From Ruminococcus sp. (GTDB lineage: Bacteria; Bacillota; Clostridia; Oscillospirales; Ruminococcaceae), in the NCBI GenBank assembly GCA_017526445.1, contig JAFXRI010000024.1, forward strand, positions 11-64,010: a stretch of DNA of 64,000 nucleotides, read 5' to 3'. The position numbers and the translations under genes were made by a program. The notes under the pieces were generated by a model. The model did no database searches and was not told where the DNA came from. It saw only the letters and a list, made by a program, of their open reading frames with translations. This document shows, piece after piece, positions 14,941 to 29,177 of the stretch (position 1 is its first letter; every line of letters begins with the position of its first letter).

Positions 14941-16041
14941 CTACTGCTGCCAGCCGTTATATTCCTGAGCAGCGGGCTGTTCGGCGGGCTGAGGCTCCTC
15001 CTGCTGCCAGCCGGTATATTCCTCTCCGGCGGGCTGCCCGGCAGGCTGCTCTGCCGGCTGTTCGGCAGGCTGTGTCTCGGGCTTGACTTCATCTATCAGC
15101 GGCTGCTCGGCAGGAGTTTCCGGCTGAGTTTCGACGGGCTGGCCGTTCTCGTCAGTGACGGGCTGTTCAGTCTGTCCGTCCTGTGCCGCCGGGGTCGTTG
15201 TGGTCTGAGCAGGAGTGGTCACAGGTCTGTTAAGTGCTCCCTTAGGTATAGCGGAGATACCGCTGTTGGCACCGTTATACTTGAGGGTGCCCTCATAGGT
15301 ATCGCTAAGCTTCTGGTCAATGACTGCTTTAAGTGAAGCGAGCTTATAATCAAGGTCGATCGAGCTTCCGAGCTTGATCTGTATGCGTCCGTCATAGTCA
15401 AGTAAAATATCTGTACGCTCGGTGATGTCTATGGCGGTGATCTTTTCAAAGCCGGAATTCCTTATAGAATCGAGGAGATTGAGCAATACCTTAGCTTTAT
15501 GGTCGTCCTCGGAAACTATCTTTTTATTCGTCTCAGGATCCTTCAAGGAAAAGCCCTTTACAAGCGGGAGCTTGGCATTATGCTCCGGGTTGGCGGCTTC
15601 GAGGATCTTTCCCGACTCGGCGATAACATAATATCTGCCGTCCTTCTCGATCTCAGCGCACTTGACCTCTTCGACGATAGTGATATTCAGTGAATTGGGA
15701 TAATCCTTATCCACAGCGGCGCTCTTTATATATGGAAGGGTATCGGTAAGGCGCTTTTCGATCACCGAGGTATTAGTTCTGATAAGGTTTGCACCCGACT
15801 CCACTCCGCCGACGGCGAGAATCTGGTCGTTGGTATAGAGAGTCACACCGGTGACCTTGACTTCCTTCAGATCAAAAAGGAAGCAAAGACAGGCAACGAG
15901 ACCGATAGCCGTAAATACGGCCACGGCCAGCGCGGAATAGGTCATAACATTACTACGCCTTCTGCGGCGGGTAAGTCTGACCTTTTTCCCGTTTATGACT
16001 TTGTATTCATCAGCTGCCTGACTTTTTACGATGTCCTTCAT
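14941..16041 (-). CDS. ftsQ: FtsQ/DivIB (TM + POTRA) with low-complexity C-terminal tail
   Basis: Basic N-terminus, single TM, POTRA LPYIKSA..YPN; position between murA and ftsZ. Confidence 0.85.
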   Translation of the reverse strand: MKDIVKSQAADEYKVINGKKVRLTRRRRRSNVMTYSALAVAVFTAIGLVACLCFLFDLKEVKVTGVTLYTNDQILAVGGVESGANLIRTNTSVIEKRLTDTLPYIKSAAVDKDYPNSLNITIVEEVKCAEIEKDGRYYVIAESGKILEAANPEHNAKLPLVKGFSLKDPETNKKIVSEDDHKAKVLLNLLDSIRNSGFEKITAIDITERTDILLDYDGRIQIKLGSSIDLDYKLASLKAVIDQKLSDTYEGTLKYNGANSGISAIPKGALNRPVTTPAQTTTTPAAQDGQTEQPVTDENGQPVETQPETPAEQPLIDEVKPETQPAEQPAEQPAGQPAGEEYTGWQQEEPQPAEQPAAQEYNGWQQ

Positions 16042-16058
16042 TTCAAACTTTCCTTCTG

Positions 16059-17318
16059 CTATTTAGTAACACGTTTTATATCAGCGCCTACAGAAGCAAG
16101 CTGCTTCTCCAGCGACTCATATCCTCTGTCTATGAAGCGGATGCCTTCGATCTCCGAGACGCCTTCTGCTGCAAGGGCTGCGGTGACAAGGGCTGCTCCC
16201 CCTCTCAGGTCGGCAGCGACTGTTCGTGCTCCGTACAGTCTGCTCACGCCGTTTATGACGGCGACCTTGCCCTCGGTCTTGATGTCGGCGCCCATCCGTA
16301 CCAGTTCATCCACATGGCGGAAGCGGTTCTCGAAGATATTCTCCACGATAACGCCGGTACCGGCGGCCTTTGTCAGCGCGGCCATCACAGGAGCCTGCGC
16401 GTCTGTAGGGAAACCGGGAAAGGGCATAGTCCTGATCATTTTCACGCTGCAGAGCGGTCTGCTCCTGCAAACGTATATCCTGTCTGAATAAGTATATACA
16501 CTGCAGCCCATCTCCTCGAAGACCGGTATAACAGCGCCGAGGTCAGAAGCCCTTGCACCGATCAGAGAAAGCTCTCCACCGGTGACAGCGGCTGCGGACA
16601 TAAGCGTAGCTGCGGCGATCCTGTCGGGCATAACGCTGTACTCACACCCGGTGAGCGTTTTCACTCCCCGAATGACGACTGTATCGCTGCCGGCACCCTC
16701 TATCCTTGCGCCGCACTTATTAAGGAACCCTGCGAGATCGGCGATCTCCGGCTCCCGCGCGGCATTTTTTATAACGGTAGTACCCTCGGCGAGGACTGCT
16801 GCCAGCATAGTATTCTCCGTTGCGCCCACGGATGGGAACGGCAGCTGTATATCTGCGCCCCTCAGACCGCCGGGGCTGCTGCATCTGAGCATACCGTATC
16901 TTTCGGAGATGTCGGCGCCCATTTTTCTCAGAGCGGAAAGGTGCATATCGATAGGTCTCGGGCCCAGCTCGCATCCTCCCGGGAAGGAGAGGTAGCATTC
17001 ACCCGTCCTGCCCAGGACGGCGCCGAGGAAGACTATCGACGAACGCATTTCCCTCATAAGTTCATCTGGGACGCAGCACCCGCAGGGCTCGTCGGCTCTG
17101 ACAGTGACGGTATTCCCAAGGACAGTACAGTCACAGCCGAGGCAGCCGAGTATGCGGCAGGCTGCGAAGACGTCGCTGAGTCTCGGGCAGTTATGCAGCA
17201 CGGTCTCCCCTTTTGCGAGAAGTGCCGCTGCGATAAGCGGAAGTGCGCTGTTTTTGGCGCCCTGCACTTTTATCTCACCGCCGAGACGTTTTTCTCCCTC
17301 TACGACGAACATTTGCAT
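16059..17318 (-). CDS. murA: UDP-N-acetylglucosamine 1-carboxyvinyltransferase
   Basis: GAKNSALP, PGGCELGPRP, SVGATEN, PGFPTD, DLRGGA, IDRGYE. Confidence 0.95.
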   Translation of the reverse strand: MQMFVVEGEKRLGGEIKVQGAKNSALPLIAAALLAKGETVLHNCPRLSDVFAACRILGCLGCDCTVLGNTVTVRADEPCGCCVPDELMREMRSSIVFLGAVLGRTGECYLSFPGGCELGPRPIDMHLSALRKMGADISERYGMLRCSSPGGLRGADIQLPFPSVGATENTMLAAVLAEGTTVIKNAAREPEIADLAGFLNKCGARIEGAGSDTVVIRGVKTLTGCEYSVMPDRIAAATLMSAAAVTGGELSLIGARASDLGAVIPVFEEMGCSVYTYSDRIYVCRSRPLCSVKMIRTMPFPGFPTDAQAPVMAALTKAAGTGVIVENIFENRFRHVDELVRMGADIKTEGKVAVINGVSRLYGARTVAADLRGGAALVTAALAAEGVSEIEGIRFIDRGYESLEKQLASVGADIKRVTK

Positions 17319-17420
17319 AGCTCTCTCCCCTTTGCGAGATGTAGTCAAAACGCAAGCTGTCGGCTCACGCTTTATACTATGCATCACTTGCTGCGGGAGT
17401 GAATGGGCAATGCTCAGTTA

Positions 17421-18293
17421 TCAGGTCTCGGAAGTGCCGGTTGTGCTGTCGAGTCTGTAGTCTATCATATCAGACACAAAGATGAACGCAGGCACACAGG
17501 GTATCGGAACAGGGCCGATGTGCTTCTTCATACCGTTGGTACGGAGCACCAGGCTCCTCATAGCCTCTGTGAGCTTCTTCTCATCCAGTTCGCTGATATT
17601 TACAAGTATCTCCACTGTAAGGGTAGTGACCTTGAACGGCGAGAGATCTGCCTTGCCGTCCTGGAGCTTTACGCTGACGAATTTGTCTCTGTAAAGGGGA
17701 TCGGCGGAAACGATGCTGAACCCGGGTATCTCCACGGAATAAGGCGAGAAGTTTCTGACGTCTATCTCAACAGTGCAGACGCGGTAATTCTCCGGCTTCT
17801 CTGAAGAAAGGTTTTCGATGTCATATACATTGGAGTCACTGAGCAGGTCCACCTTGAGCTGAGCCATATTGCTCTGCTCAAAGACATTCGTATCCAGCAC
17901 TTTGCCTACCGTACCGGAAAGTGACAGCGGAGGAAGGAAGGTCACTACAACGAACAGTGCGATGACTGCTATGATGGCTATACGTCTTACGAGCCATCTT
18001 GCGTGATACTTTCCGCCGAACTTAATGCCCTTTTCCTTCGGCTTCTTATCAGCCTGCTTCTTACGCTCCTCGATAAGTTCATCGAACTCATCGATCTCTT
18101 TTTTCTCCTCCGTCCTTTCCGGCACACTGACCGGTGCGGCGGTATCGAAATTTGCTCTTACGGTATTTGTAAAGTCATCGATGCCTTTTTCCTTATACAC
18201 CCGTCGGCTGTCGACGTATCCGCCCTGGAGGTTTTTTATTTTATCCTCGTCCGGAAGATTTATGGAATCCATTGATTTATTTGAACTACGCAT
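17421..18293 (-). CDS. Hypothetical bitopic membrane protein
   Basis: Charged N-terminus, one TM, beta-rich C-terminal domain; RBS GGAG. Confidence 0.75.
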   Translation of the reverse strand: MRSSNKSMDSINLPDEDKIKNLQGGYVDSRRVYKEKGIDDFTNTVRANFDTAAPVSVPERTEEKKEIDEFDELIEERKKQADKKPKEKGIKFGGKYHARWLVRRIAIIAVIALFVVVTFLPPLSLSGTVGKVLDTNVFEQSNMAQLKVDLLSDSNVYDIENLSSEKPENYRVCTVEIDVRNFSPYSVEIPGFSIVSADPLYRDKFVSVKLQDGKADLSPFKVTTLTVEILVNISELDEKKLTEAMRSLVLRTNGMKKHIGPVPIPCVPAFIFVSDMIDYRLDSTTGTSET

Positions 18294-18310: not shown

Positions 18311-19447
18311 TTATTTCCCTTCGATAAGCGGACGAAGGGTATCATAGATCCTGTCATTGGTATCGCTGATATAGAGTGCTGCGGCATTTGCCGAAAGGTC
18401 GGCCATACGCTGAGGTTCGTCTATCAGCTCAGCTACCTTATCGATAACGGTGGTCTCGGTCAGCGTCTTCTCCTCGAAAACGAAGCCTGCGCCGGCATTC
18501 TGAAGCACCATACCGTTATGGTACTGGTGGTTCTCGGCCACCATAGGCGAGGGGATGAGGATCGCTCCCCTTCCGACAGCCTCCAGCTCGGTAAGGGTGC
18601 TGGCGCCGCATCTTGTTATAACGAGGTCACAGGCCGCGAGAGACAGCGGCATATTCACATACTCGCTGACTATGAGCCTTTTATTCCCCTTGACCTTCAC
18701 GCCGTCTGCTTCAAGTTTGTCAACATAGCCGGCGTAGTCCTTATATGTTCCGTAAGAATGGATATGACAGATATCCTTGCCGTTATCCTGATACCATTTG
18801 AGCAGTTTTTCCACGGTATCGTTTATAGTTTTTGAGCCCAGGCTGCCGCCGGCCGAGAGGATAACTATATCGTCGTCGGAGAAGCCCAGCTCACGTCTTG
18901 CTTCCTGTTTTGTCTTACGCTCAAATGCACGGCGGACGGGCAGGCCGGTGACAACAGCCTTGCTTTTCACCGACTCGTCGAGGTTCTTGGTCTCGGCGAC
19001 GGTGAGCATTATCTTATCCACCTGTTTACTGAGCAGCTTGGTGGTAACGCCCGCGAAAGCATTGGCTTCGTGTATAGCGGTCTTTATCCCCATTTTAGCG
19101 GCTTTCCTCACGACAGGTCCGGAGACATATCCTCCGGTACCGATCACAAGGTCTGGCTTGAAGTCACGGATTATCTGTTTGGCGCGTCTTCCGGAATGGA
19201 TGAGGTAATGCATGGCCTTGACATTACGCTTGACGTTCTCAGCGCTGAGGTGTCTTTGTATGCCCTCGATCTTTATAGGCTCGAAGCGATAACCCGCCTG
19301 GGGAACGATCCTGGCCTCCAGCTTATTTGGGTTGCCCGCAAAGCAGAATTCCGCATCGGGGTGATGCTCCTTTATTATCTCGGCGATAGCCATTGCGGGG
19401 TTGATATGTCCCGCGGTGCCGCCGCCTGCAAGTAAAACTCTAAGCAT
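18311..19447 (-). CDS. murG: Lipid II GlcNAc transferase
   Basis: GGGTAGHINP, GTGGYVSGP, HEAN, GGSLG, HQYHN. Confidence 0.95.
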   Translation of the reverse strand: MLRVLLAGGGTAGHINPAMAIAEIIKEHHPDAEFCFAGNPNKLEARIVPQAGYRFEPIKIEGIQRHLSAENVKRNVKAMHYLIHSGRRAKQIIRDFKPDLVIGTGGYVSGPVVRKAAKMGIKTAIHEANAFAGVTTKLLSKQVDKIMLTVAETKNLDESVKSKAVVTGLPVRRAFERKTKQEARRELGFSDDDIVILSAGGSLGSKTINDTVEKLLKWYQDNGKDICHIHSYGTYKDYAGYVDKLEADGVKVKGNKRLIVSEYVNMPLSLAACDLVITRCGASTLTELEAVGRGAILIPSPMVAENHQYHNGMVLQNAGAGFVFEEKTLTETTVIDKVAELIDEPQRMADLSANAAALYISDTNDRIYDTLRPLIEGK

Positions 19448-19486
19448 AGTGATCTCTCCGAACTCCGGCAATTATCTGCCGGGAAA

Positions 19487-20713
19487 TCATTTCCTGGTAT
19501 TGGACTGGCGCGATATGCTGAGCAGTATGCCCATTTCGGCCAACTGTATGAGCAGGGCTGTTCCGCCGTAGCTGAAAAACGGCAGCGAGATGCCCGTATT
19601 CGGGAAGGCGTTGCTGGCCACAGCGATATTCAGCAGAGCCTGTGCGCCGATCTGGACGGTGATGCCTGTTGCAAGCATCATTCCGAAACGGTCCTTGGCA
19701 CGGCTGGCGATATAGAATCCGCGGAGTATGAACATAACGAACAGTAATATTACAGCCAGTGCGCCGATAAGCCCCAGCTCCTCACAGACGACTGAGAAAA
19801 CGAAGTCGTTCTGCGACTCGGGCAGGTAGAGGTATTTCTGTCTTGACTCGCCGAAGCCGAGGCCGAACATGCCGCCTGAGCCTATGGCGATCAGGGAGTT
19901 ATAGGTCTGGAGCGTTTTATCCTCGGGGTCAGAAAGGGGATCCTGCCAGCTCTGGATACGGTCGGTGATATAGCCGAAGTCCTTATCTATAAATATCTTA
20001 TAGAGCACGAGTCCTGCGCCGAGGGCAGCGGCCAGTGCGATGAACGCAAAGAAATGCTTTTTGGGCATACCGCTGACGAACATCATAGTAACGCCTATGA
20101 TAGCCACCAGCATAACTGCGGACATATGTCTCTGCTTCATAAGCACGAGTATCACTGCCCCGAGTATCAGTGCGAAGGGCAGCGTAGAATAGCGCCACTT
20201 ATTGAAGCTCTGGAAATTGACCGAGATGATATAAGCGAAGACTATTATAACAGCGATCTTCAGAAACTCCGACGGCTGGAGCTGGAATGAACCTATCTCG
20301 AGCCAGCGGGTAGCGTCGGCGGTCGAACTGCCGACGAAGGATGTGATGAGTGTGACAACAAAGGTCACGGCGAACACAAGATAAGCGATCACGGTATTCT
20401 GGAAGAAATGGTAATCCAGGAAAGACACGGCGATCATCAGGCCGAGACCTATGATTCCCGCACGGATCTGTCTTGTTACATAGTAATAACCGTCGCCCTC
20501 GATAGCGAGAGCTCTTGCATAGCTGGCCGAGAACATCATCACTATGCCGAAGACCAGCAGAACGAGTATCAGCAGACAGAACGGCTTATCTATCTCGGCG
20601 CTTATCAGGCGGAAATTTACGTGTTTTCTGGCCTGAGCGACCCTCTGCTTGCCTGCGCCCTCATTAGGAACGGACGTCTCCGCTGTGTCGGCGCCTGCGG
20701 TATATTCATCCAA
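19487..20713 (-). CDS. ftsW: SEDS peptidoglycan polymerase FtsW/SpoVE
   Basis: QPSEFLK, GSGG..GLG.SRQK..LPESQNDF, PNTGISLPFFSYGG. Confidence 0.92.
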   Translation of the reverse strand: MDEYTAGADTAETSVPNEGAGKQRVAQARKHVNFRLISAEIDKPFCLLILVLLVFGIVMMFSASYARALAIEGDGYYYVTRQIRAGIIGLGLMIAVSFLDYHFFQNTVIAYLVFAVTFVVTLITSFVGSSTADATRWLEIGSFQLQPSEFLKIAVIIVFAYIISVNFQSFNKWRYSTLPFALILGAVILVLMKQRHMSAVMLVAIIGVTMMFVSGMPKKHFFAFIALAAALGAGLVLYKIFIDKDFGYITDRIQSWQDPLSDPEDKTLQTYNSLIAIGSGGMFGLGFGESRQKYLYLPESQNDFVFSVVCEELGLIGALAVILLFVMFILRGFYIASRAKDRFGMMLATGITVQIGAQALLNIAVASNAFPNTGISLPFFSYGGTALLIQLAEMGILLSISRQSNTRK

Positions 20714-20727
20714 GGATCTTTACCCCC

Positions 20728-21801
20728 TTAATCAACGACTAAAACTATCCCCTTCGCATACACAGCGAAGATAAGCGACAATGCGGCGCCTGCGAGACCT
20801 GCCAGCGCAAAGAGAAGCAGCACGGTATGGCTGCCGAAGCCCTTTTCACGCCATAGCATCCGCAGCGGGCGCCTTGGAGATATGTCCCCGCGCTGCGGCT
20901 TAGGTATATGTTTGAATCTTATATAATGGATCACTGCGGCTGCCAGGTCCGCAAGCTGCGGGACAGCAGCGGTCAGCAGCAGAAGCTCCAGCCCGGACAG
21001 TACAACGGAAGCGGCAAACAGTGCTCCTATGAACATAGAGCCCGACTCCCCTGACCAGATCTTAGACGGCGGGAAGGTGAACAGGAGCATACCGATACAG
21101 GCACCTGCGCCTATGTCGGCCAGCAGAGCGCCGCCGTAGGCTGTGACGATCTCACAGCACAGGCCGACTGCAAGCAGCGAAACGGCTCCGGTAAGCTCAC
21201 ACAGTCCGCCCACAGCGGTGCTGTAATCACTTCCGAAGCAAAAATGCAGTTTGAAAACGTTCACAGCTGCGGTCATAAAAAACGCTGTGACGGGATAGTA
21301 AAAGACTCCCGCATCCGCATAGCCCAATCTGAACGGCAGAAGTACTGCAGTGCCCGTATCTCCGTTCTTTGAGAAGCTCAAAAGCAATGTCAGGCTGAGC
21401 AGGAAGATCAAAAGCTGCTTGAACGCTGCGGGGAGCCCGGCGGGCCTTGCGAGGAATTTTCTGAGCCTATCCTCAGCCGCACCCACACACATAATCATTA
21501 TAACATAAATTCCCGCGAAAATCAAGTCCCCGCGAGAATTCTGTGTTATACTTCCATTTAGATCGGCAAAGGCTGCCAAAGGAAAGAACCAGGCTGCAAA
21601 GCCCAATGCTGCAACAACGCCTCCCATAGACGGTTCGGAGCCGTCGGCAGAAAAGCGTCTGCCTATTTTCCATTCGAGCCTGCCTGTTTTTTTAGCCCGC
21701 AGCAGCGGTATCGCTGCCAGCCCGATCAGGAAAACTGTCGGGATCACGAGCATACAAGCTATTATCAAAGCAGCAAGCTGCGATCCGAATGCATCACCCA
21801 A
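20728..21801 (-). CDS. mraY: MraY-like membrane protein with degenerate catalytic motifs
   Basis: Position between murF and ftsW; ~10 TM; PSMGG and PPSKIWSGESGS remnants of MraY motifs; TTG start uncertain. Confidence 0.7.
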   Translation of the reverse strand: MGDAFGSQLAALIIACMLVIPTVFLIGLAAIPLLRAKKTGRLEWKIGRRFSADGSEPSMGGVVAALGFAAWFFPLAAFADLNGSITQNSRGDLIFAGIYVIMIMCVGAAEDRLRKFLARPAGLPAAFKQLLIFLLSLTLLLSFSKNGDTGTAVLLPFRLGYADAGVFYYPVTAFFMTAAVNVFKLHFCFGSDYSTAVGGLCELTGAVSLLAVGLCCEIVTAYGGALLADIGAGACIGMLLFTFPPSKIWSGESGSMFIGALFAASVVLSGLELLLLTAAVPQLADLAAAVIHYIRFKHIPKPQRGDISPRRPLRMLWREKGFGSHTVLLLFALAGLAGAALSLIFAVYAKGIVLVVD

Positions 21802-23158
21802 GGCTTTCGACTACCTCCTCGAGCTTCATTCCCCTGCTGCCCTTAAAGAGCACGGCATCTCCTTCGGAGACCTGAGTTTTCAGGTACTCGGCCAGTTCCT
21901 CTCTTGTGTCGAAATGTTTGCAGGCATCGGCGGGGAATCCCTTCTTCACGGCTCCCTCGATATAGAACTGTGAGTTCTCGCCGAAACAGAGCAGCATATC
22001 GGCCTTCGATGAGGCAACGTGCTCTCCCACATTCTTATGGTAGAGCCTTGCATTCTTTCCAAGCTCCAGCATATCGGCCAGGACGCAGATACGCTTGCCG
22101 TTTTCTGCAGCGGAGACCTGTGACAGTACCGAAAGGGCGGCTTTCATCGAATCGGGTGCAGCATTATAGCAGTCGATTATCAGGGTAATACCGTTTCTGA
22201 CGCTCACATTCTGTCTGAGGCCGCCGGGCTTATAGTCTCCGGCACCTTTGGCGCACTCAGCAGGATCAATGCCGAGCATAACGCCGACACAGAAAGCTGC
22301 CAGGGCATTTCTGATATTATGCTCACCCAGGACCTCCAGCTCAGCGGGGTACTTTCCGCCGTTATAGTTTATAGTAAAGGTTATGCGGTTATTCTCGCTG
22401 ACGATGTTGGAGGCATAGACGTCGCAGTCCTTTTTGCGCAGCGAGTAGTACATTGCACGTCTGCCGCCGTGAAGCTCAATACCCGCAAGCAGTTTATCGT
22501 CGCGGTTGAGGATCAGCGGAGCATCTGGAGCTGCACCGTCGAGTATTTCGAGTTTTGCTTTGAGTATATTCTCCTGCGAGCCCAGATTCTCGATATGAGA
22601 AACGCCAATATTTGTTATCACGCATATTGTGGGAGCTGAGCAGCTGGAGAGCCTTGACATCTCGCCGGCGTGGTTCATACCCATTTCGATAACAGCGGCT
22701 TCATAGCTGTCGTCGAGCCCGAAGAGCGTCTGGGGCATACCGACCTCGTTATTATGGTTGCCTTCTGTTTTCAGAGTCTTGAACTTTCTTGCAAGCACGC
22801 AGGCGATCATATCCTTGGTGGTAGTCTTTCCCACGCTGCCGGTAATACCGACGAGGGGGATGGAGAACTTCTCTCTGTAATAATGGGCGAGATCCAGCAG
22901 AGCCTTGGCAGTGGAATCGACGATGATACACTTTGCGCCTTCGACAGGTCTTTCGGTGATAACAGCGGCTGCACCCAGCTTCATAGCCTCGGCGGCAAAA
23001 TCGTGGCCGTCGAAGTTCTCACCCTTGAGGGCTAAAAACACTGAGTTTTCGGTTATCTTTCTTGTATCCGTCGAGATGCTGTCAACAAGCGTATCCGAGG
23101 GATAGCCGAAGCTCCCATCGACAGCCGAGACGATCTCTGCCAAACTCATTTTCTTCAT
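21794..23158 (-). CDS. murF: UDP-MurNAc-tripeptide--D-Ala-D-Ala ligase
   Basis: ITGSVGKTTTK, NHNNEVG, EMGM, DCYNA, KGSRGM. Confidence 0.95.
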   Translation of the reverse strand: MKKMSLAEIVSAVDGSFGYPSDTLVDSISTDTRKITENSVFLALKGENFDGHDFAAEAMKLGAAAVITERPVEGAKCIIVDSTAKALLDLAHYYREKFSIPLVGITGSVGKTTTKDMIACVLARKFKTLKTEGNHNNEVGMPQTLFGLDDSYEAAVIEMGMNHAGEMSRLSSCSAPTICVITNIGVSHIENLGSQENILKAKLEILDGAAPDAPLILNRDDKLLAGIELHGGRRAMYYSLRKKDCDVYASNIVSENNRITFTINYNGGKYPAELEVLGEHNIRNALAAFCVGVMLGIDPAECAKGAGDYKPGGLRQNVSVRNGITLIIDCYNAAPDSMKAALSVLSQVSAAENGKRICVLADMLELGKNARLYHKNVGEHVASSKADMLLCFGENSQFYIEGAVKKGFPADACKHFDTREELAEYLKTQVSEGDAVLFKGSRGMKLEEVVESLG

Positions 23159-23203: not shown

Positions 23204-24637
23204 TCAGCACTCGGCAAGAGCCTCAGCCACGACCTCTCTTTCATCAAAGTGGATCTTGACGCCGCCTGCAAGGATCTGATAATCCTCATGTCCCTTGCCG
23301 GCGAGGACGATTATATCATCCTTCTCAGCGTTCCTGACTGCCCAATGGATAGCCTCACGTCTGTCGGTTATCTTGATATAGGGAGTATTCTTGCCTTCGA
23401 GTCCTTTCATTATATCGTTTATGATATCCTCGGGATCCTCATTGCGGGGGTTATCCGATGTGATGATGAGGAAATCGGCGTTATCAGCAGCAGCTGCTGC
23501 CATAAGGGGGCGCTTGGTGGCGTCTCTGTTTCCGCCGCATCCGAACAGGCACTTGACCTTGCCCTCGGCACCGTTTTTTATGGCTGAGAGGACATTGACA
23601 AGGGCATCAGGGGTATGGGCATAGTCGCAGATAACAGTAAAGTCCTTGCCGGTTGGGATCACCTCTGCTCTGCCGCGGACGCCCTGCATCTTATTGAGCT
23701 GACGGATGACCTTTTCGGCATCGAAGCCGAGAGTCTCACAGCAGGCGATAACGGCCAAAGAGTTTGATACATTAAACACGCCGGGCATTTTGAAATCCAC
23801 GTTATGCTTATTTCTGCCGTCGCAGTACACATACTTGACGCCGCTTGCCGAGAGGAGTATATCCTCAGCATAGAAGTCGGCCTTCTGCTCGGCGGAATAG
23901 GTATTCTTGGGGCAGCTGATCTCCTCGAGATAGCGTCTGCCGTAGAAGTCGTCGATATTGATTATGGCCTGAGCCGACACATCGAAGAGCAGTTTCTTAG
24001 CCTGATAGTAATTTTCCATAGAGCCGTGGACGTCCAGGTGGTCCTGGGTGAGATTAGTGAATATACCGACAGCAAACTCGCAGGGGCCGAGGCGCTTCTG
24101 CTCCAGGCCCTGAGAGGAAGCCTCCATCACCACATACTCACAGCCCTCGTCGGCCATTCTGCGGAACAGCGCGAAAAGCTCATAGGGCTCGGGAGTTGTC
24201 ATAGTTGTGGGTATAAGGGTGCTGCCGATCTCGTTCTGACAGGTCCCGATGAGTCCCACTTTTTTGCCGAAGCCGTCGAGGACCTTCTTCATAACGGTAG
24301 TAATAGTGGTCTTGCCGTTGGTACCGGTCACGCCGATAAGCTTCAGCTGTTTCTGGGGATCGCCGAAATATCTTGCGCACAATGCGGGATAGGCTGCTCT
24401 TGTATCGGGTACGATGATCTGATTATCAAGCCCGAGGTCATGCTCGCACACGATAACGGAAGCGCCTTTTGCGATCATATCGTTTGCGGCGTTATGCCCG
24501 TCGAAGGTATTGCCCTTGATGCACACGAACACAAACCCTTCGGGCATTTCCCTTCGGGTATCTGAGGTGACATCGGAGATCTCCCTGTCAGGCAGTTCAG
24601 TCTGCGCTATGCCTTTAATCAAATCATACAGTTTCAT
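23204..24637 (-). CDS. murE: UDP-MurNAc-dipeptide--meso-DAP ligase
   Basis: GTNGKTT, DYAHTPD, DNPR (DAP-specific), AGKGHE. Confidence 0.95.
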   Translation of the reverse strand: MKLYDLIKGIAQTELPDREISDVTSDTRREMPEGFVFVCIKGNTFDGHNAANDMIAKGASVIVCEHDLGLDNQIIVPDTRAAYPALCARYFGDPQKQLKLIGVTGTNGKTTITTVMKKVLDGFGKKVGLIGTCQNEIGSTLIPTTMTTPEPYELFALFRRMADEGCEYVVMEASSQGLEQKRLGPCEFAVGIFTNLTQDHLDVHGSMENYYQAKKLLFDVSAQAIINIDDFYGRRYLEEISCPKNTYSAEQKADFYAEDILLSASGVKYVYCDGRNKHNVDFKMPGVFNVSNSLAVIACCETLGFDAEKVIRQLNKMQGVRGRAEVIPTGKDFTVICDYAHTPDALVNVLSAIKNGAEGKVKCLFGCGGNRDATKRPLMAAAAADNADFLIITSDNPRNEDPEDIINDIMKGLEGKNTPYIKITDRREAIHWAVRNAEKDDIIVLAGKGHEDYQILAGGVKIHFDEREVVAEALAEC

Positions 24638-24682: not shown

Positions 24683-27037
24683 TTACTCGTCCTTGAACGT
24701 TACCGACACGGCCGTCCCCTCCGGTACGACTGTCTGCGCGGCATAGTTCTGGTCGCCGTCCGCGACGGCTGTTTCGCTGTCAGCAGCGCTGCCAAGTGTA
24801 GTAAGGTTCAGACCTGCCTCTTCAAGTGCTGCTTTCGCCTTTTCTCTGGTAAGGCCCTTGAGATTCGGTACAGTTACCAGCTTCTCGGTATAGCCTTCCT
24901 CGGTGTAGAGAACGACGGTGCCGCCCTTTTCGATGTTGCCCGTAACGGGGACCTGCTTGACAACAGAATCGCCCTTGCCCTGCACATTCACTTTGAGCCC
25001 CGCCTCATCGAGTGTCTTCCTTGCGTTCTCGATAGGAGCGAACTCGACATTCGGTACAGTTACCTGGAGCTGTGCCAACTCGTCATCGGTGTACTGAGGG
25101 AAGTATCCCAGGTAAGGGAGGACCTCGCTCATTACCTCGACGCACACAGGAGCTGCAAGCTCAGAACCATAGTACATCTGACCGGTAGGATGGTCGATCA
25201 TCACCAGCATTATTATCTCGGGATCGTCTGCGGGAGCAAAAGCACAGTAGGAAGCGACGTAGGTATTACCTGTCTCGTCCTCATCCAGCTTCTGCGAGGT
25301 ACCCGACTTACCGCCTATACGGTAGCCCTTGATATTGCAGTTGCCCGTAGGTTCGGAGACGACCACATTTTCGAGGATCTCTCTCATAGTCTTTGAAACA
25401 TCCTCGGAGATGACCTGTCTTTTCATAACGGGCTCGTTATCGGTGATGACATTGCCCTTGGAATCGACTATCTTATCCACGACCTGAGGAGTCATAAGGT
25501 AGCCTCCGTTGATAACAGCCGAAAAAGCTGAGATCATCTGTATCGGGGTGATCTTATTGGACTGTCCGAAGCTGGAGGCCGAAAGATCGACGATGGTCAT
25601 ATCCTCTTCACGGTGGTATATCGAATCGGCCTCGCCGGGGAGGTCGATACCGGTCTTTTCGGTGAACCCGTAGGCACGGAAGAACTTGGAGAAGCCTTCC
25701 ACGCCGAGCCGCTGTCCTATCTGGACGAAAGCGGGGTTACAGGAATTGGTCATTGCAAGCGCCAGATTCTGGGAGCCGTGATCGACGAAGGACCAGCAAT
25801 GCATCTGGTGGTCGGCGACCTGTATGAAGGTATTGCAGGGGAAGGTATCGTTCAGTGTGATGACCTGCTGCTCCAGCGCGGAGGAACCGGTTATTACCTT
25901 GAACACGGAGCCAGGGTTATAAAGCTCGGAAACGGCCTTATTCTTCCACTGCTCGCTCCAGGCTTCCAGCTGGACCTTCTTATACTCCTTTGAATCCTCC
26001 GGCAGTGCGGCGAGTTTTGCCGCTGACTTATCGTCGGTTATATCAGCCGGAGAGTTGGGATCATAGCTGTAATTGGTGGCCATAGCCAGCACGGCGCCTG
26101 TTTTCGGGTTCATAACTATGCCGCAGGCTCTGTCCGTGGGGTTTGCTATAGATACGCCCTTTGCCAGAGCTTTTTCCAGCTGATACTGGATATTGACGTC
26201 GATATTGAGCACGAGGGACGAGCCGTCCTGCGCGTCATAGGACTGTCTGTATCTATAAGGTATCTCTGTACCGTCGCGGGCGGTGGCGGTGATGACTCTG
26301 CCGTCTATACCGCGGAGGTAGTTATCGTAATAAGCCTCGATGCCGTAGATGCCGTCGCCGTCATAGCTCAGATGTCCGAGAACATTGGCGGCAAGGGCGC
26401 CCTGGGGATAGAATCTTTTCGTAGCGGGCTCGCACCTTATGCCGTCGAGCTTCTCCTTGGTGAGGTATTCCTCTATCTTGGAGGCAACGGTCTTTTCCAC
26501 ATTCTTCTTGATTATCTCGTATCGGGATTCCTTATTTGTGCAATGCTCTCTTACCGACTCAGGCTCGACTTTCAGCGTCTGCGCCAGAAAGCTCACCAGC
26601 TCGCTGTAGGACTGATCGGTAGATTTGGTCTCGGCAAGCCTTTCCTGATATCTGAGCAGTTTGGACTTATCGTCCTCATCCTCTATGAGCTCTTTGAGTT
26701 CCTTTATCTTTGCATCTCTTTTATCAAGGTAATCATCCCACAGCATCACAGGGTCCACATATACTGTATAGACCGTAGCGCTCTGTGCGAGGACCTGGCC
26801 GTTGGTATCGAAGATGGAACCTCTTGACGCAGGGATGACTGTACTTCTCACCTGCTGAGAGTTAGCCAGCTCCTGCCACTGTTCGGCCTCGGTGACTGAC
26901 ACCTTGAAAATCTGCGTTATTATATATATCACTATCAGGAACAGGACGAACACGACATACCGCGTCAGCCTGTTTTTCATTACCCTTGTAGGCGCGTCTG
27001 CCTGCGTGGGCTTGGGAGCTTTTTTCAAACGGAACAT
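24683..27037 (-). CDS. Class B penicillin-binding protein (FtsI/SpoVD-like) with PASTA domains
   Basis: SVFK, SCN, KSG motifs; two C-terminal VPN.. PASTA repeats. Confidence 0.92.
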   Translation of the reverse strand: MFRLKKAPKPTQADAPTRVMKNRLTRYVVFVLFLIVIYIITQIFKVSVTEAEQWQELANSQQVRSTVIPASRGSIFDTNGQVLAQSATVYTVYVDPVMLWDDYLDKRDAKIKELKELIEDEDDKSKLLRYQERLAETKSTDQSYSELVSFLAQTLKVEPESVREHCTNKESRYEIIKKNVEKTVASKIEEYLTKEKLDGIRCEPATKRFYPQGALAANVLGHLSYDGDGIYGIEAYYDNYLRGIDGRVITATARDGTEIPYRYRQSYDAQDGSSLVLNIDVNIQYQLEKALAKGVSIANPTDRACGIVMNPKTGAVLAMATNYSYDPNSPADITDDKSAAKLAALPEDSKEYKKVQLEAWSEQWKNKAVSELYNPGSVFKVITGSSALEQQVITLNDTFPCNTFIQVADHQMHCWSFVDHGSQNLALAMTNSCNPAFVQIGQRLGVEGFSKFFRAYGFTEKTGIDLPGEADSIYHREEDMTIVDLSASSFGQSNKITPIQMISAFSAVINGGYLMTPQVVDKIVDSKGNVITDNEPVMKRQVISEDVSKTMREILENVVVSEPTGNCNIKGYRIGGKSGTSQKLDEDETGNTYVASYCAFAPADDPEIIMLVMIDHPTGQMYYGSELAAPVCVEVMSEVLPYLGYFPQYTDDELAQLQVTVPNVEFAPIENARKTLDEAGLKVNVQGKGDSVVKQVPVTGNIEKGGTVVLYTEEGYTEKLVTVPNLKGLTREKAKAALEEAGLNLTTLGSAADSETAVADGDQNYAAQTVVPEGTAVSVTFKDE

Positions 27038-27147: not shown

Positions 27148-27630
27148 TTATTGAGCGCCGATATATTCCAGCACGCCCATAAACCAGTTCTTTATGCTCA
27201 CAAACACATTATCGTCCTCGGGAGCATCTGCTTCGGCCACCTTGGATTTAGGCACCTCAACATATTCGATCTGGTACTTGTCGAGCTTTTTAAGGCCCAA
27301 CTGATTTTCAGCATACTCCTCGACCTTAGTAAGACCTGTCTTCTGCGCGAGTTCAGACTCAAGACTGACGTTCTCGTTGCGAAGCCTTGAAAGCTCAGTC
27401 TCCAGCTCGCTCTGCTGTGAATAGAGGCTGGAAAGCTCTACTCTGCCGTAGATCATATAGCAAAGCAGTGCAAGAGCGCAGGCAGCGAGGAGAAACGCCT
27501 TTATAATGCTGACAGTCCTGCGGGCAGGAGCAGAAACAGCTTTCGGTGTCTTAGGCTTCTCGCGTGAAAGTTCTTCTTCGTCGTATATGCTGTAATCATA
27601 AGCCAAGTTATGAGAATTGAGATCTGCCAT
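27148..27630 (-). CDS. ftsL: FtsL-like protein
   Basis: NLAYD motif, TM + coiled coil, A..QLGL; between rsmH and pbp. Confidence 0.75.
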   Translation of the reverse strand: MADLNSHNLAYDYSIYDEEELSREKPKTPKAVSAPARRTVSIIKAFLLAACALALLCYMIYGRVELSSLYSQQSELETELSRLRNENVSLESELAQKTGLTKVEEYAENQLGLKKLDKYQIEYVEVPKSKVAEADAPEDDNVFVSIKNWFMGVLEYIGAQ

Positions 27631-27660
27631 ATATATCACCTTACCAGAAATGAACAAACA

Positions 27661-28590
27661 TTATTTTATCTTCCTGATGATGCGCAGCTTTGCGCTGCGG
27701 CTGCGGTTGTTCTCCGCAAGCTCATCCTCCGAAGGCTCGATCGGCTTTCTTGTGACGATCTCTCCCCTCGGTGTCTTGCCGCACACGCACACCGGGAATT
27801 CCGGCGGACAGGAACAGCCTCTTGCGAAGCTTTGGAATCTTTGCTTGACGAGCCTGTCCTCCAGCGAATGGAAGGTTATCACTGCCAGTCTTCCGCCGGG
27901 ATTAAGGCAGTCAAAAGCTTCGTCCAGCGCCCGGTCCAGGTGTCCGAGCTCATTATTTACTTCTATCCTTATAGCCTGGAAGGTCTTCTTACAAGGATTC
28001 TTCTCACGTCTGACCTTCTGCGGCACGCAGTTTTTTATGATCTCTGCCAGCTGAAAGGTCGTCTCTATCGGTTTTTCCTCTCTTGACCTGACAATGCCGG
28101 ATGCGATGCTTCGGGCGTATTTTTCCTCTCCGTACTCGAATATGATCTTAGAGAGCTGCTCGTAAGGGTACTCGTTGACCACGTCCCTTGCTGACATACC
28201 CTCGCTGCTCATCCTCATATCCAGCGGGGCATCCTGATGATAGGAGAACCCGCGGCTGCCGTTATCGAGCTGATAGCTTGACACGCCGAGATCGAGCAGG
28301 ATACCGTCGGCACCCTTTATACCTCTTTCGGCAAGCACGCTGCGCATCTCGGAATAGTTAGCCTGTACGACCTCTGCGGGGAGCCCTTTAAGCCGCTGTC
28401 CTGCGACAGCCACAGCCTCGGGATCCCTGTCGAGGGAGATCAGTCTTCCCTTCCCTGCTTCGAGCCTTGCTGCTATCTCGCGGGAATGTCCCGCTCCGCC
28501 GGCCGTTCCGTCAACATAGATGCCGTCCGGCCTGATGCAAAGCCCTTCGATGCACTCGCCGAGCATTACCGGATAGTGCTTGAAATCCAT
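27661..28590 (-). CDS. rsmH: 16S rRNA C1402 N4-methyltransferase
   Basis: HYPVM, DGTAGGAGH, DLGVSSYQ, FHSLEDR, NNRSRSAKLR. Confidence 0.97.
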   Translation of the reverse strand: MDFKHYPVMLGECIEGLCIRPDGIYVDGTAGGAGHSREIAARLEAGKGRLISLDRDPEAVAVAGQRLKGLPAEVVQANYSEMRSVLAERGIKGADGILLDLGVSSYQLDNGSRGFSYHQDAPLDMRMSSEGMSARDVVNEYPYEQLSKIIFEYGEEKYARSIASGIVRSREEKPIETTFQLAEIIKNCVPQKVRREKNPCKKTFQAIRIEVNNELGHLDRALDEAFDCLNPGGRLAVITFHSLEDRLVKQRFQSFARGCSCPPEFPVCVCGKTPRGEIVTRKPIEPSEDELAENNRSRSAKLRIIRKIK

Positions 28591-29036
28591 TAAAAGTCAA
28601 GTCCTTCCAAAGCGTCCATAAGTGCGCCGAGGTCAACACTGTTGTTGAAATCCTCCCACTTCTGCTTATCCCAGATCTCGCACCTGTCGGACACACCTGT
28701 TACAACGATCTCCTTATCGAGGCCTGCAAGTGTTCTCAGGGCAGGAGGGATAAGTATCCTTCCCTGCTTATCGGCCTCGACCTCGCTCGCATTAGCCATG
28801 AACACGCGCTGGAAGTTCCTCGCCTGCGACATAGGCAGGTTCCTGATCTTCTCGGCACGCAGTTCAAAGTCTTCTTTTGAATACACGAACAAGCAGCCGT
28901 CGCTTCCCCTGGTGACGATGAACCTTTCGCCGATGATCTCGCGCAGCTTTGCAGGGAATGTCATCCTGCCCTTTACGTCCATTGACTGATAATAGGTACC
29001 CTTCAGGGTATGTCTGGCGTTCTCATTTTCCGACAA
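28590..29036 (-). CDS. mraZ: dcw cluster repressor MraZ
   Basis: DVKGR and DKQGR repeats; probable TTG start after GGAGGTG. Confidence 0.93.
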   Translation of the reverse strand: MSENENARHTLKGTYYQSMDVKGRMTFPAKLREIIGERFIVTRGSDGCLFVYSKEDFELRAEKIRNLPMSQARNFQRVFMANASEVEADKQGRILIPPALRTLAGLDKEIVVTGVSDRCEIWDKQKWEDFNNSVDLGALMDALEGLDF

Positions 29037-29110
29037 AGTGTTCACCTCCCGACCTGTGATGTAAGGCTTGACGAGCGGCTTCTGCAAATTCTGGTGAAAT
29101 TTCAGGGAAC

Positions 29111-29177
29111 TTTCACCACTTTTTTGCACTTTTCACCACTCTGTCACTATTATACACCACTGATCCGGAAATTGCAA
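29111..29177 (-). promoter_or_regulatory. dcw promoter with MraZ-binding direct repeats
   Basis: TTGCAA-17-TATAAT (extended TG), followed by AGTGGTGAAA/AGTGCAAAAA/AGTGGTGAAA at 10-bp period. Confidence 0.8.

Follow-up and report, generated by a model that had tools for sequence, protein, structure and literature searches.

MraY is treated as a universal, essential, and single-copy enzyme and as an antibiotic target. Its canonical form is modelled by the curated equivalog TIGR00445 and has structures from Aquifex (PDB 4J72/5CKR), Clostridium bolteae (5JNQ), and E. coli (8G01). In Aquifex MraY, D117, D118, and D265 form the essential DDD motif, with Mg2+ bound by D265; T75, N190, D193, and G264 form the uridine-adjacent pocket, G194, L195, D196, and F262 the uridine pocket, and loop E holds H324 and H325 (PMC6606608). 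Two mraY genes in one genome have been described for Planctopirus limnophila, where mraY1 and mraY2 can each be singly deleted (PMC10632474). WecA/TagO-type enzymes belong to the same PNPT superfamily and occur as a second GT4 gene in other families of the order treated here. A few sequences from Ruminococcaceae, Ruminococcus, and Treponema have been said to be ones that “could be divergent MraY sequences” (bioRxiv 10.1101/2022.11.30.518518), and this passing remark is all that the literature searched gave on a dead, second, or divergent MraY in these bacteria.

We analyzed a window of 64,000 nucleotides from a Ruminococcus sp. assembly (GCA_017526445.1, contig JAFXRI010000024.1; family Ruminococcaceae, order Oscillospirales), in which the dcw cluster carries a degenerate mraY orthologue, hereafter the relic. 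A second MraY-family gene, MraY2, lies elsewhere in the genome. Our joint claim, which we hold to be the probable one, is that the relic is a dead orthologue under selection and MraY2 the working enzyme; the activity of MraY2 and the function of the relic are inferred.

The relic resembles canonical MraY in its fold, its dcw slot, and its tree position, and in retaining D118, the PxK motif, and the Gly/Pro framework; it differs in that the DDD motif, the uridine pockets, and the loop-E His residues are replaced, in an 8-residue insert, and in scoring 43 bits where the TIGR00445 cut-off is 192. MraY2, which is annotated as MraY in Ruminococcus, R. albus, Butyrivibrio, Lachnospira, and Lachnoclostridium phytofermentans, shares with the relic the PNPT superfamily, the MraY fold, and the genome, but keeps all catalytic motifs, lies outside the dcw cluster, and forms a separate clade. 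The sequences of the bioRxiv remark are probably these same proteins, left unannotated there; two copies, lost catalytic residues, dcw position, and displacement go unmentioned. Planctopirus limnophila likewise has two mraY genes in one genome, but no catalytic degeneration is reported for it and wall synthesis is non-essential there (PMC10632474). WecA/TagO-type PNPTs are alike in superfamily and in a loop A (xPRxGG) that resembles that of MraY2, but are orthologous to neither the relic nor MraY2, and the genus has no such third gene.

The dcw cluster and its degenerate mraY

The initial annotation had described an intact frame of 357 codons with normal-looking mur neighbors, and this held; the strand is minus. 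The uninterrupted ORF has a TTG start and encodes 357 aa. Its 5′ end overlaps the murF stop by 8 nt and its 3′ end lies 14 nt ahead of the ftsW start. The gene order on the minus strand is mraZ, rsmH, ftsL, PBP, murE, murF, degenerate mraY, ftsW, murG, a 290-aa ORF, murA, and ftsQ, as follows.

27148..29129, minus strand: mraZ, rsmH, and ftsL, head of the dcw cluster (TIGR00242, TIGR00006, weak TIGR02209 match)
24683..27037, minus strand: class B PBP with PASTA domains, ftsI/spoVD type (PF00905, PF03717, PF03793)
23204..24637, minus strand: murE (Mur-ligase domains)
21794..23158, minus strand: murF, Mur ligase (three Mur-ligase Pfam domains; 66–69% identity to murF of genus relatives)
20728..21801, minus strand: degenerate mraY orthologue, the relic (PF00953 37.3 bits, TIGR00445 42.9 bits, motif table, fold, dN/dS)
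19487..20713, minus strand: ftsW/spoVE-type SEDS protein (PF01098, 297 bits)
18311..19471, minus strand: murG (PF03033, PF04101)
17421-18293, minus strand: 290-aa ORF between murG and murA, without a Pfam or NCBIfam match
14941..17387, minus strand: murA and ftsQ/divIB, end of the cluster (PF00275; PF08478 and PF03799)

Apart from ftsL, with its weak match, the named neighbors score far above the Pfam/NCBIfam cut-offs. The murG product uses lipid I; therefore, lipid I must be made in this organism. A scan of the cluster for promoters and terminators gave nothing useful above background. We also observed that murD is missing between the mraY slot and ftsW (window 19487-23158), unlike in many dcw clusters.

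The dcw gene passes PF00953 (37.3 bits, cut-off 27) and fails TIGR00445, the NCBIfam mraY equivalog (42.9 bits versus a cut-off of 192); its orthologues in the genus score 21–133 bits on the latter. All the motif substitutions listed in the initial annotation are present when the protein is aligned with 31 canonical MraYs of the same family and order: TPTMGG has become EPSMGG, DD has become ED (AAEDRLRK), NxxNLTDGxDG has become NVFKLHFCF followed by the 8-residue insert and VGG, MGDTGS has become SGESGS, and PIHHHFE has become PLRMLWR. Position by position, with canonical residues numbered by Aquifex MraY (PMC6606608) and K70 and T75 mapped by our own count from the PDB alignment, the correspondence is as follows.

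Canonical residue: residue in the window protein
K70: D53
First Thr of TPTMGG: E56
T75: S58
D117: E110
D118: D111, retained
N190: K184
D193: F187
D196: G198
F262: W249
D265: E252
Loop E HHH: R-M-L (R314/M315 at H324/H325)

The insert lies between the D193 and D196 positions. The motif changes are common to the orthologues across the genus and are therefore not chance, and the D265 position is unconstrained, being E, Q, T, or V among them. Two grades of the gene occur within the genus. The mild clade has ED, keeps D193 and D196 around the insert, and has GE or GQ and an H-A-H in loop E; in the severe clade, to which the window belongs, D193, D196, and the loop-E His residues are gone. Of the features expected of a functional MraY, the dcw protein lacks the full DDD motif, the uridine and uridine-adjacent pocket residues, and the HHH of loop E. 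We infer that it most likely no longer works as a phospho-MurNAc-pentapeptide translocase; there is no enzymology, and with acidic residues (E, D, and E) at the DDD positions a weak or altered catalysis is not formally excluded.

Fold, orthology, and selection

The dcw protein keeps the MraY fold, as predicted by an AF2 model with mean pLDDT 90.8 and pTM 0.91; the 48-sequence alignment behind it contained canonical MraYs, which helps the model. By our count the prediction has ten transmembrane helices; a short hairpin separates helices four and five, and the last cytoplasmic loop contains a further helix. Foldseek aligned it over its full length with solved MraY structures (9B70, 5CKR, and 5JNQ) at TM 0.72–0.84, ahead of human GPT. 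Synteny and phylogeny together make the gene the positional and phylogenetic orthologue of mraY: its slot is in all cases the one that separates murF from ftsW, and a tree of 89 PNPT proteins under a mixture model places it inside the canonical MraYs of the family and order, with long branches that leave its placement approximate.

Selection was estimated as pairwise NG86 dN/dS, with the following ranges.

Relic: 0.07–0.27
murF: 0.06–0.23
ftsW: 0.04–0.13
MraY2: 0.05–0.13

In the least saturated pair (dS about 0.5–0.7), the values are 0.109 for the relic, 0.088 for murF, 0.038 for ftsW, and 0.068 for MraY2; within the window’s clade, the relic has 0.17–0.23 at dS above 1.2. Most pairs have dS > 1, so those values are approximate, and saturation in the window’s clade would push omega up, not down. 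The relic is thus relaxed ∼1.5–2-fold in most pairs, yet it is not neutral and evolves under purifying selection. Of the 22 genus genomes with an assembled locus that still contains the gene, 20 have it intact and at full length, and contig ends truncate it in the remaining two; the locus is unassembled in two further genus genomes.

Among 19 genus sequences of the relic, 34 columns are invariant, about two thirds of which map by homology to the former cytoplasmic active-site face. Positions kept on this face comprise loop A residues from P32 to G61, G107, D111, C188, G199, P245, K247, G251, S253, G254, and G259. Eight residues that are invariant or nearly so (D53, G54, S55, E56, C188, F189, S253, and D285) are specific to the relic and absent from canonical MraY. 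The site has therefore been remodeled and then held, and is not simply dissolving, which favors a retained or new binding function, with no ligand identified.

With catalytic residues lost, the frame intact, and dN/dS well below 1, the gene qualifies as a pseudoenzyme, the reading that the initial annotation had proposed; motif loss, fold retention, and the dN/dS range support it, the non-catalytic role itself being inferred. Neutral decay of homologues, named there as a possible refutation, is not met at these dN/dS values; the gene has nonetheless been lost in some lineages.

Absence of canonical mraY and a divergent second gene

Across the 25 genus genomes covered by the search, of which several are 99–100% complete, TIGR00445 has no match above the cut-off, and hence none has a canonical mraY by this search, whereas canonical MraY (213–309 bits) was found in 15 of the 16 other families of the order. 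Each genus genome holds up to two sub-threshold TIGR00445 genes, the dcw gene (21–133 bits) and a gene of ∼320 aa (62–92 bits). In G020 and G013, both complete genomes, the dcw gene and MraY2 are the two PF00953 genes, with no others. The window’s own genome, a 78%-complete MAG, has the same two PNPT genes, and for it the absence of a third rests on these complete relatives. We rejected the possibility that a canonical mraY is hidden in the unassembled 22% of the MAG, as relatives that are 99–100% complete also have none. A single-sequence search for related loci with the window protein found nothing, and alignment-based scans succeeded. Separately, an 85%-complete genome from another family of the order (G035) gave only a 69-bit WecA-like TIGR00445 match and no canonical MraY, which might reflect incompleteness or possibly another displacement.

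The initial annotation had placed the active mraY elsewhere in the genome. That proposal is supported with an amendment: no canonical copy exists among the genes found, and the second gene, MraY2, is a divergent subtype whose activity is inferred. Its surroundings in the window’s genome, on a contig other than that of the window, are as follows.

L001:1468-2433 (contig C40, about 17130-18095): MraY2, 321 aa, outside the window
L001:2-1444: flippase-like gene (LPG_synthase_TM / TIGR00374) and PssA-like CDP-alcohol phosphatidyltransferase gene, following MraY2
L001:2711-3772, plus strand: two-domain PPK2 polyphosphate kinase, divergently upstream of MraY2

The neighbors of MraY2 are lipid genes, not wall genes. 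The trio of MraY2, flippase-like gene, and PssA-like gene is conserved throughout the genus as well as in G079 and R. albus (L001, L039, L043, L045, L048, L061, and L184), and is absent from most other MraY2-bearing genera.

MraY2 is present in all 27 genus genomes examined for it, and it is also widespread beyond the family; at least 581 MraY2 loci occur in the genome contigs searched (153 clusters at E<1e-30). Its signature is GKPRGAG / DD / NVxNCSDGVDG (NVTNCSDGVDG in its fuller form) / MGDAGS / PxHDH, then GWSD. No catalytic position (DD, N..D..D, GD, or the loop-E His) varies among 11 genus sequences, nor among a wider set of 27 that also covers other genera, R. albus, and Lachnospiraceae. 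Loop E reads H-D-H instead of H-H-H, and loop A has Lys/Arg (GKPRGAG) where MraY has TPT, a resemblance to WecA/TagO-type enzymes. Mean column identity is 68% for MraY2 versus 54% for the dcw gene.

TIGR00445 gives MraY2 66.5 bits, below the cut-off, and a MraY2 profile run against all PDB sequences matched MraY alone. An AF2 model built from MraY2 sequences only (pLDDT 88.9) has a predicted hairpin between the fourth and fifth helices and is closer to the MraY fold (TM 0.77–0.82) than to GPT (DPAGT1; 0.57–0.70). At NCBI, relatives of MraY2 carry the name phospho-N-acetylmuramoyl-pentapeptide-transferase and relatives of the dcw gene the name “hypothetical protein.” In the 89-protein tree, MraY2 is a separate, fully supported clade with a long stem; in this quick tree it groups with WecA-like proteins, a join that we flag as long-branch.

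Two other identities for MraY2 were considered and rejected. A WecA/TagO-type enzyme was rejected because MraY2 shows no orthology with the second GT4 genes found in other families, because its matches were to MraY models and structures alone and to no WecA model, and because it is the sole PNPT in several genomes. Contamination as the source of contig C40 was rejected because the MraY2 on it shares 79% identity with its counterpart in a genus relative and the MraY2 tree mirrors the relic tree within the genus. The agreement of the two trees within the genus indicates that both genes are vertically inherited there.

Genomes in which MraY2 is the only PNPT

Three genus members (G017, which is 93% complete, G006, and G004) have no relic, and murF directly adjoins ftsW in them, with gaps of 145, 73, and 166 nt, respectively; their only PF00953 gene is MraY2. 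Two genomes from other genera, G132 and G122, both 99% complete, likewise lack the relic at a clean murE-murF-ftsW-murG junction, and there TIGR00445 at E<=0.01 finds only MraY2 (PF00953 was not used for these two). All five keep murE, murF, ftsW, and murG.

The same is seen among Lachnospiraceae. For Lachnospira pectinoschiza M83 and Ca. Weimeria, PF00953 matches MraY2 alone, and for Lachnoclostridium phytofermentans KNHs2131 and Butyrivibrio sp. XPD2002 what it matches besides is insignificant (15–18 bits). The MraY2 genes of these four cultured Lachnospiraceae (L183, L185, L186, and L187) score 67–105 bits on TIGR00445, below the cut-off, and lie outside any murF-ftsW context; the Lachnospiraceae with MraY2 as their only significant PNPT keep murF.

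These organisms have peptidoglycan. With peptidoglycan present and murF kept, the sole PNPT must be an MraY, an inference from essentiality without an assay. We therefore regard MraY2 as the probable lipid I synthase, a role inferred in the absence of enzymology or expression data.

Graded erosion and the origin of MraY2

A scan of the family covered 151 genomes, with two from this genus and one from each other genus, and found MraY2 in 15 genera, 13 outside this genus. The mraY slot of these 13 shows every grade from canonical to deleted: four have a canonical dcw MraY (226–287 bits), five have eroded dcw copies (115, 62, 57, 43, and 42 bits), two have ORFs of 307 and 341 aa in the slot with only 17–18 bits on PF00953, and in two the dcw copy is absent. 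We interpret the 307- and 341-aa frames, listed here, as relics near the detection limit.

L101:537-1457 (G189): barely recognizable relic, 307 aa, in the mraY slot, overlapping an ORF called ftsW in another frame
L102:448-1470 (G077): barely recognizable relic, 341 aa, in the mraY slot

When a FastTree of MraY2 is given canonical and WecA-like proteins as its root, the earliest branches are those of Lachnospiraceae, and the main Ruminococcus clade has a nested position; the MraY2 copies of genera that still have canonical MraY group with Lachnospiraceae. This topology suggests transfer into Ruminococcaceae, perhaps more than once. The direction of transfer is not settled because the rooting is on long branches.

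Interpretation and rival explanations

Our analysis shows the motif loss, fold retention, orthology, and purifying selection of the relic, its deletion or erosion in relatives, and the presence of MraY2; the role of MraY2 as lipid I synthase and a non-catalytic function of the relic are inferred. The sequence of events that we favor is as follows. MraY2 would most likely have been acquired from, or shared with, Lachnospiraceae, and would have made the native dcw enzyme redundant. The redundant gene would then have lost its Mg2+-binding and catalytic Asp residues, together with the residues of the uridine pocket and the His residues of loop E, lipid I now being made by MraY2. The relic would have been kept as a folded membrane protein, probably with a role outside catalysis in those steps of wall synthesis that occur at the membrane, a role that may use its remodeled cytoplasmic face, the new residues of which are invariant across the genus. 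Since the relic is dispensable in several lineages, this role is not essential. A scaffold or regulatory role is our best guess, with a neofunctionalized pocket as the alternative.

That alternative is the rival that survives best. It holds that the relic has become an enzyme or receptor with a new ligand in the remodeled pocket, not a mere scaffold with an ancestral role. In its favor, the eight relic-specific residues (D53, G54, S55, E56, C188, F189, S253, and D285) cluster by homology on the former active-site face, where D111 and K247 are also retained. Against it, no ligand or partner has been identified, the remodeled motifs erode further in other genera, and the gene is dispensable in some lineages; we consider it unlikely.

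A second rival holds that the dcw gene is still a working MraY with an unusual active site (Glu for Asp), and that MraY2 serves another polymer. The acidic triad E110/D111/E252 is kept, the former active-site face is the best conserved part of a protein under purifying selection, and loop A of MraY2 is like that of WecA/TagO enzymes. However, close relatives have T, V, or Q in place of D265, F and G stand where D193 and D196 were, and none of the three loop-E His residues is left; moreover, the dcw gene is deleted in the five genomes described above that keep murE, murF, ftsW, and murG (G017, G006, G004, G132, and G122), and MraY2 is the only significant PNPT match in the four Lachnospiraceae. 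We judge this reading very improbable. Equally hard to sustain is an ordinary pseudogene in neutral decay whose frame is open by luck: loss or erosion past recognition in several related lineages and a relic dN/dS roughly 1.5–2 times that of the neighbors in most pairs speak for it, but the frame is full length in 20 of 22 genomes separated by dS of 0.5 to over 1.5, dN/dS is 0.07–0.27, 34 columns including relic-specific ones are invariant, and the fold is confidently predicted.

Returning to the favored reading of a dead orthologue beside a working MraY2, a bolder form of it is possible, in which MraY has a catalysis-independent second role that a foreign MraY2 cannot supply. Conceivable candidates are the organizing of MurF, MurG, and FtsW at the membrane, or the sensing or holding of a precursor or carrier lipid. 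The remodeled pocket (D53-G-S-E56-P, C188-F189, S253, and D285) might then be the functional core of a regulatory or binding protein newly derived from an essential enzyme.

Implications

If the inferred activity of MraY2 is correct, abundant gut and rumen Clostridia (Ruminococcus with R. albus, and several Lachnospiraceae) would run wall synthesis on a divergent MraY subtype, one that the curated equivalog model TIGR00445 misses. Loop A residues of MraY2 are changed where canonical MraY lines part of the uridine-adjacent inhibitor pocket (T75 to Arg), and sensitivity to nucleoside antibiotics and to MraY-targeting phage lysis proteins may therefore differ. The relic, dead but selected within the dcw operon, offers a natural handle on any non-catalytic role of MraY, and Ruminococcus would, if the bolder reading is true, amount to a separation-of-function mutant that arose in nature. 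Running from canonical to deleted, the series documents the displacement of an essential gene with unusual completeness. Cultured strains make the displacement testable, among them R. albus, Ruminococcaceae bacterium FB2012, and L. phytofermentans; in R. albus KH2T6, the layout is the same as in the window.
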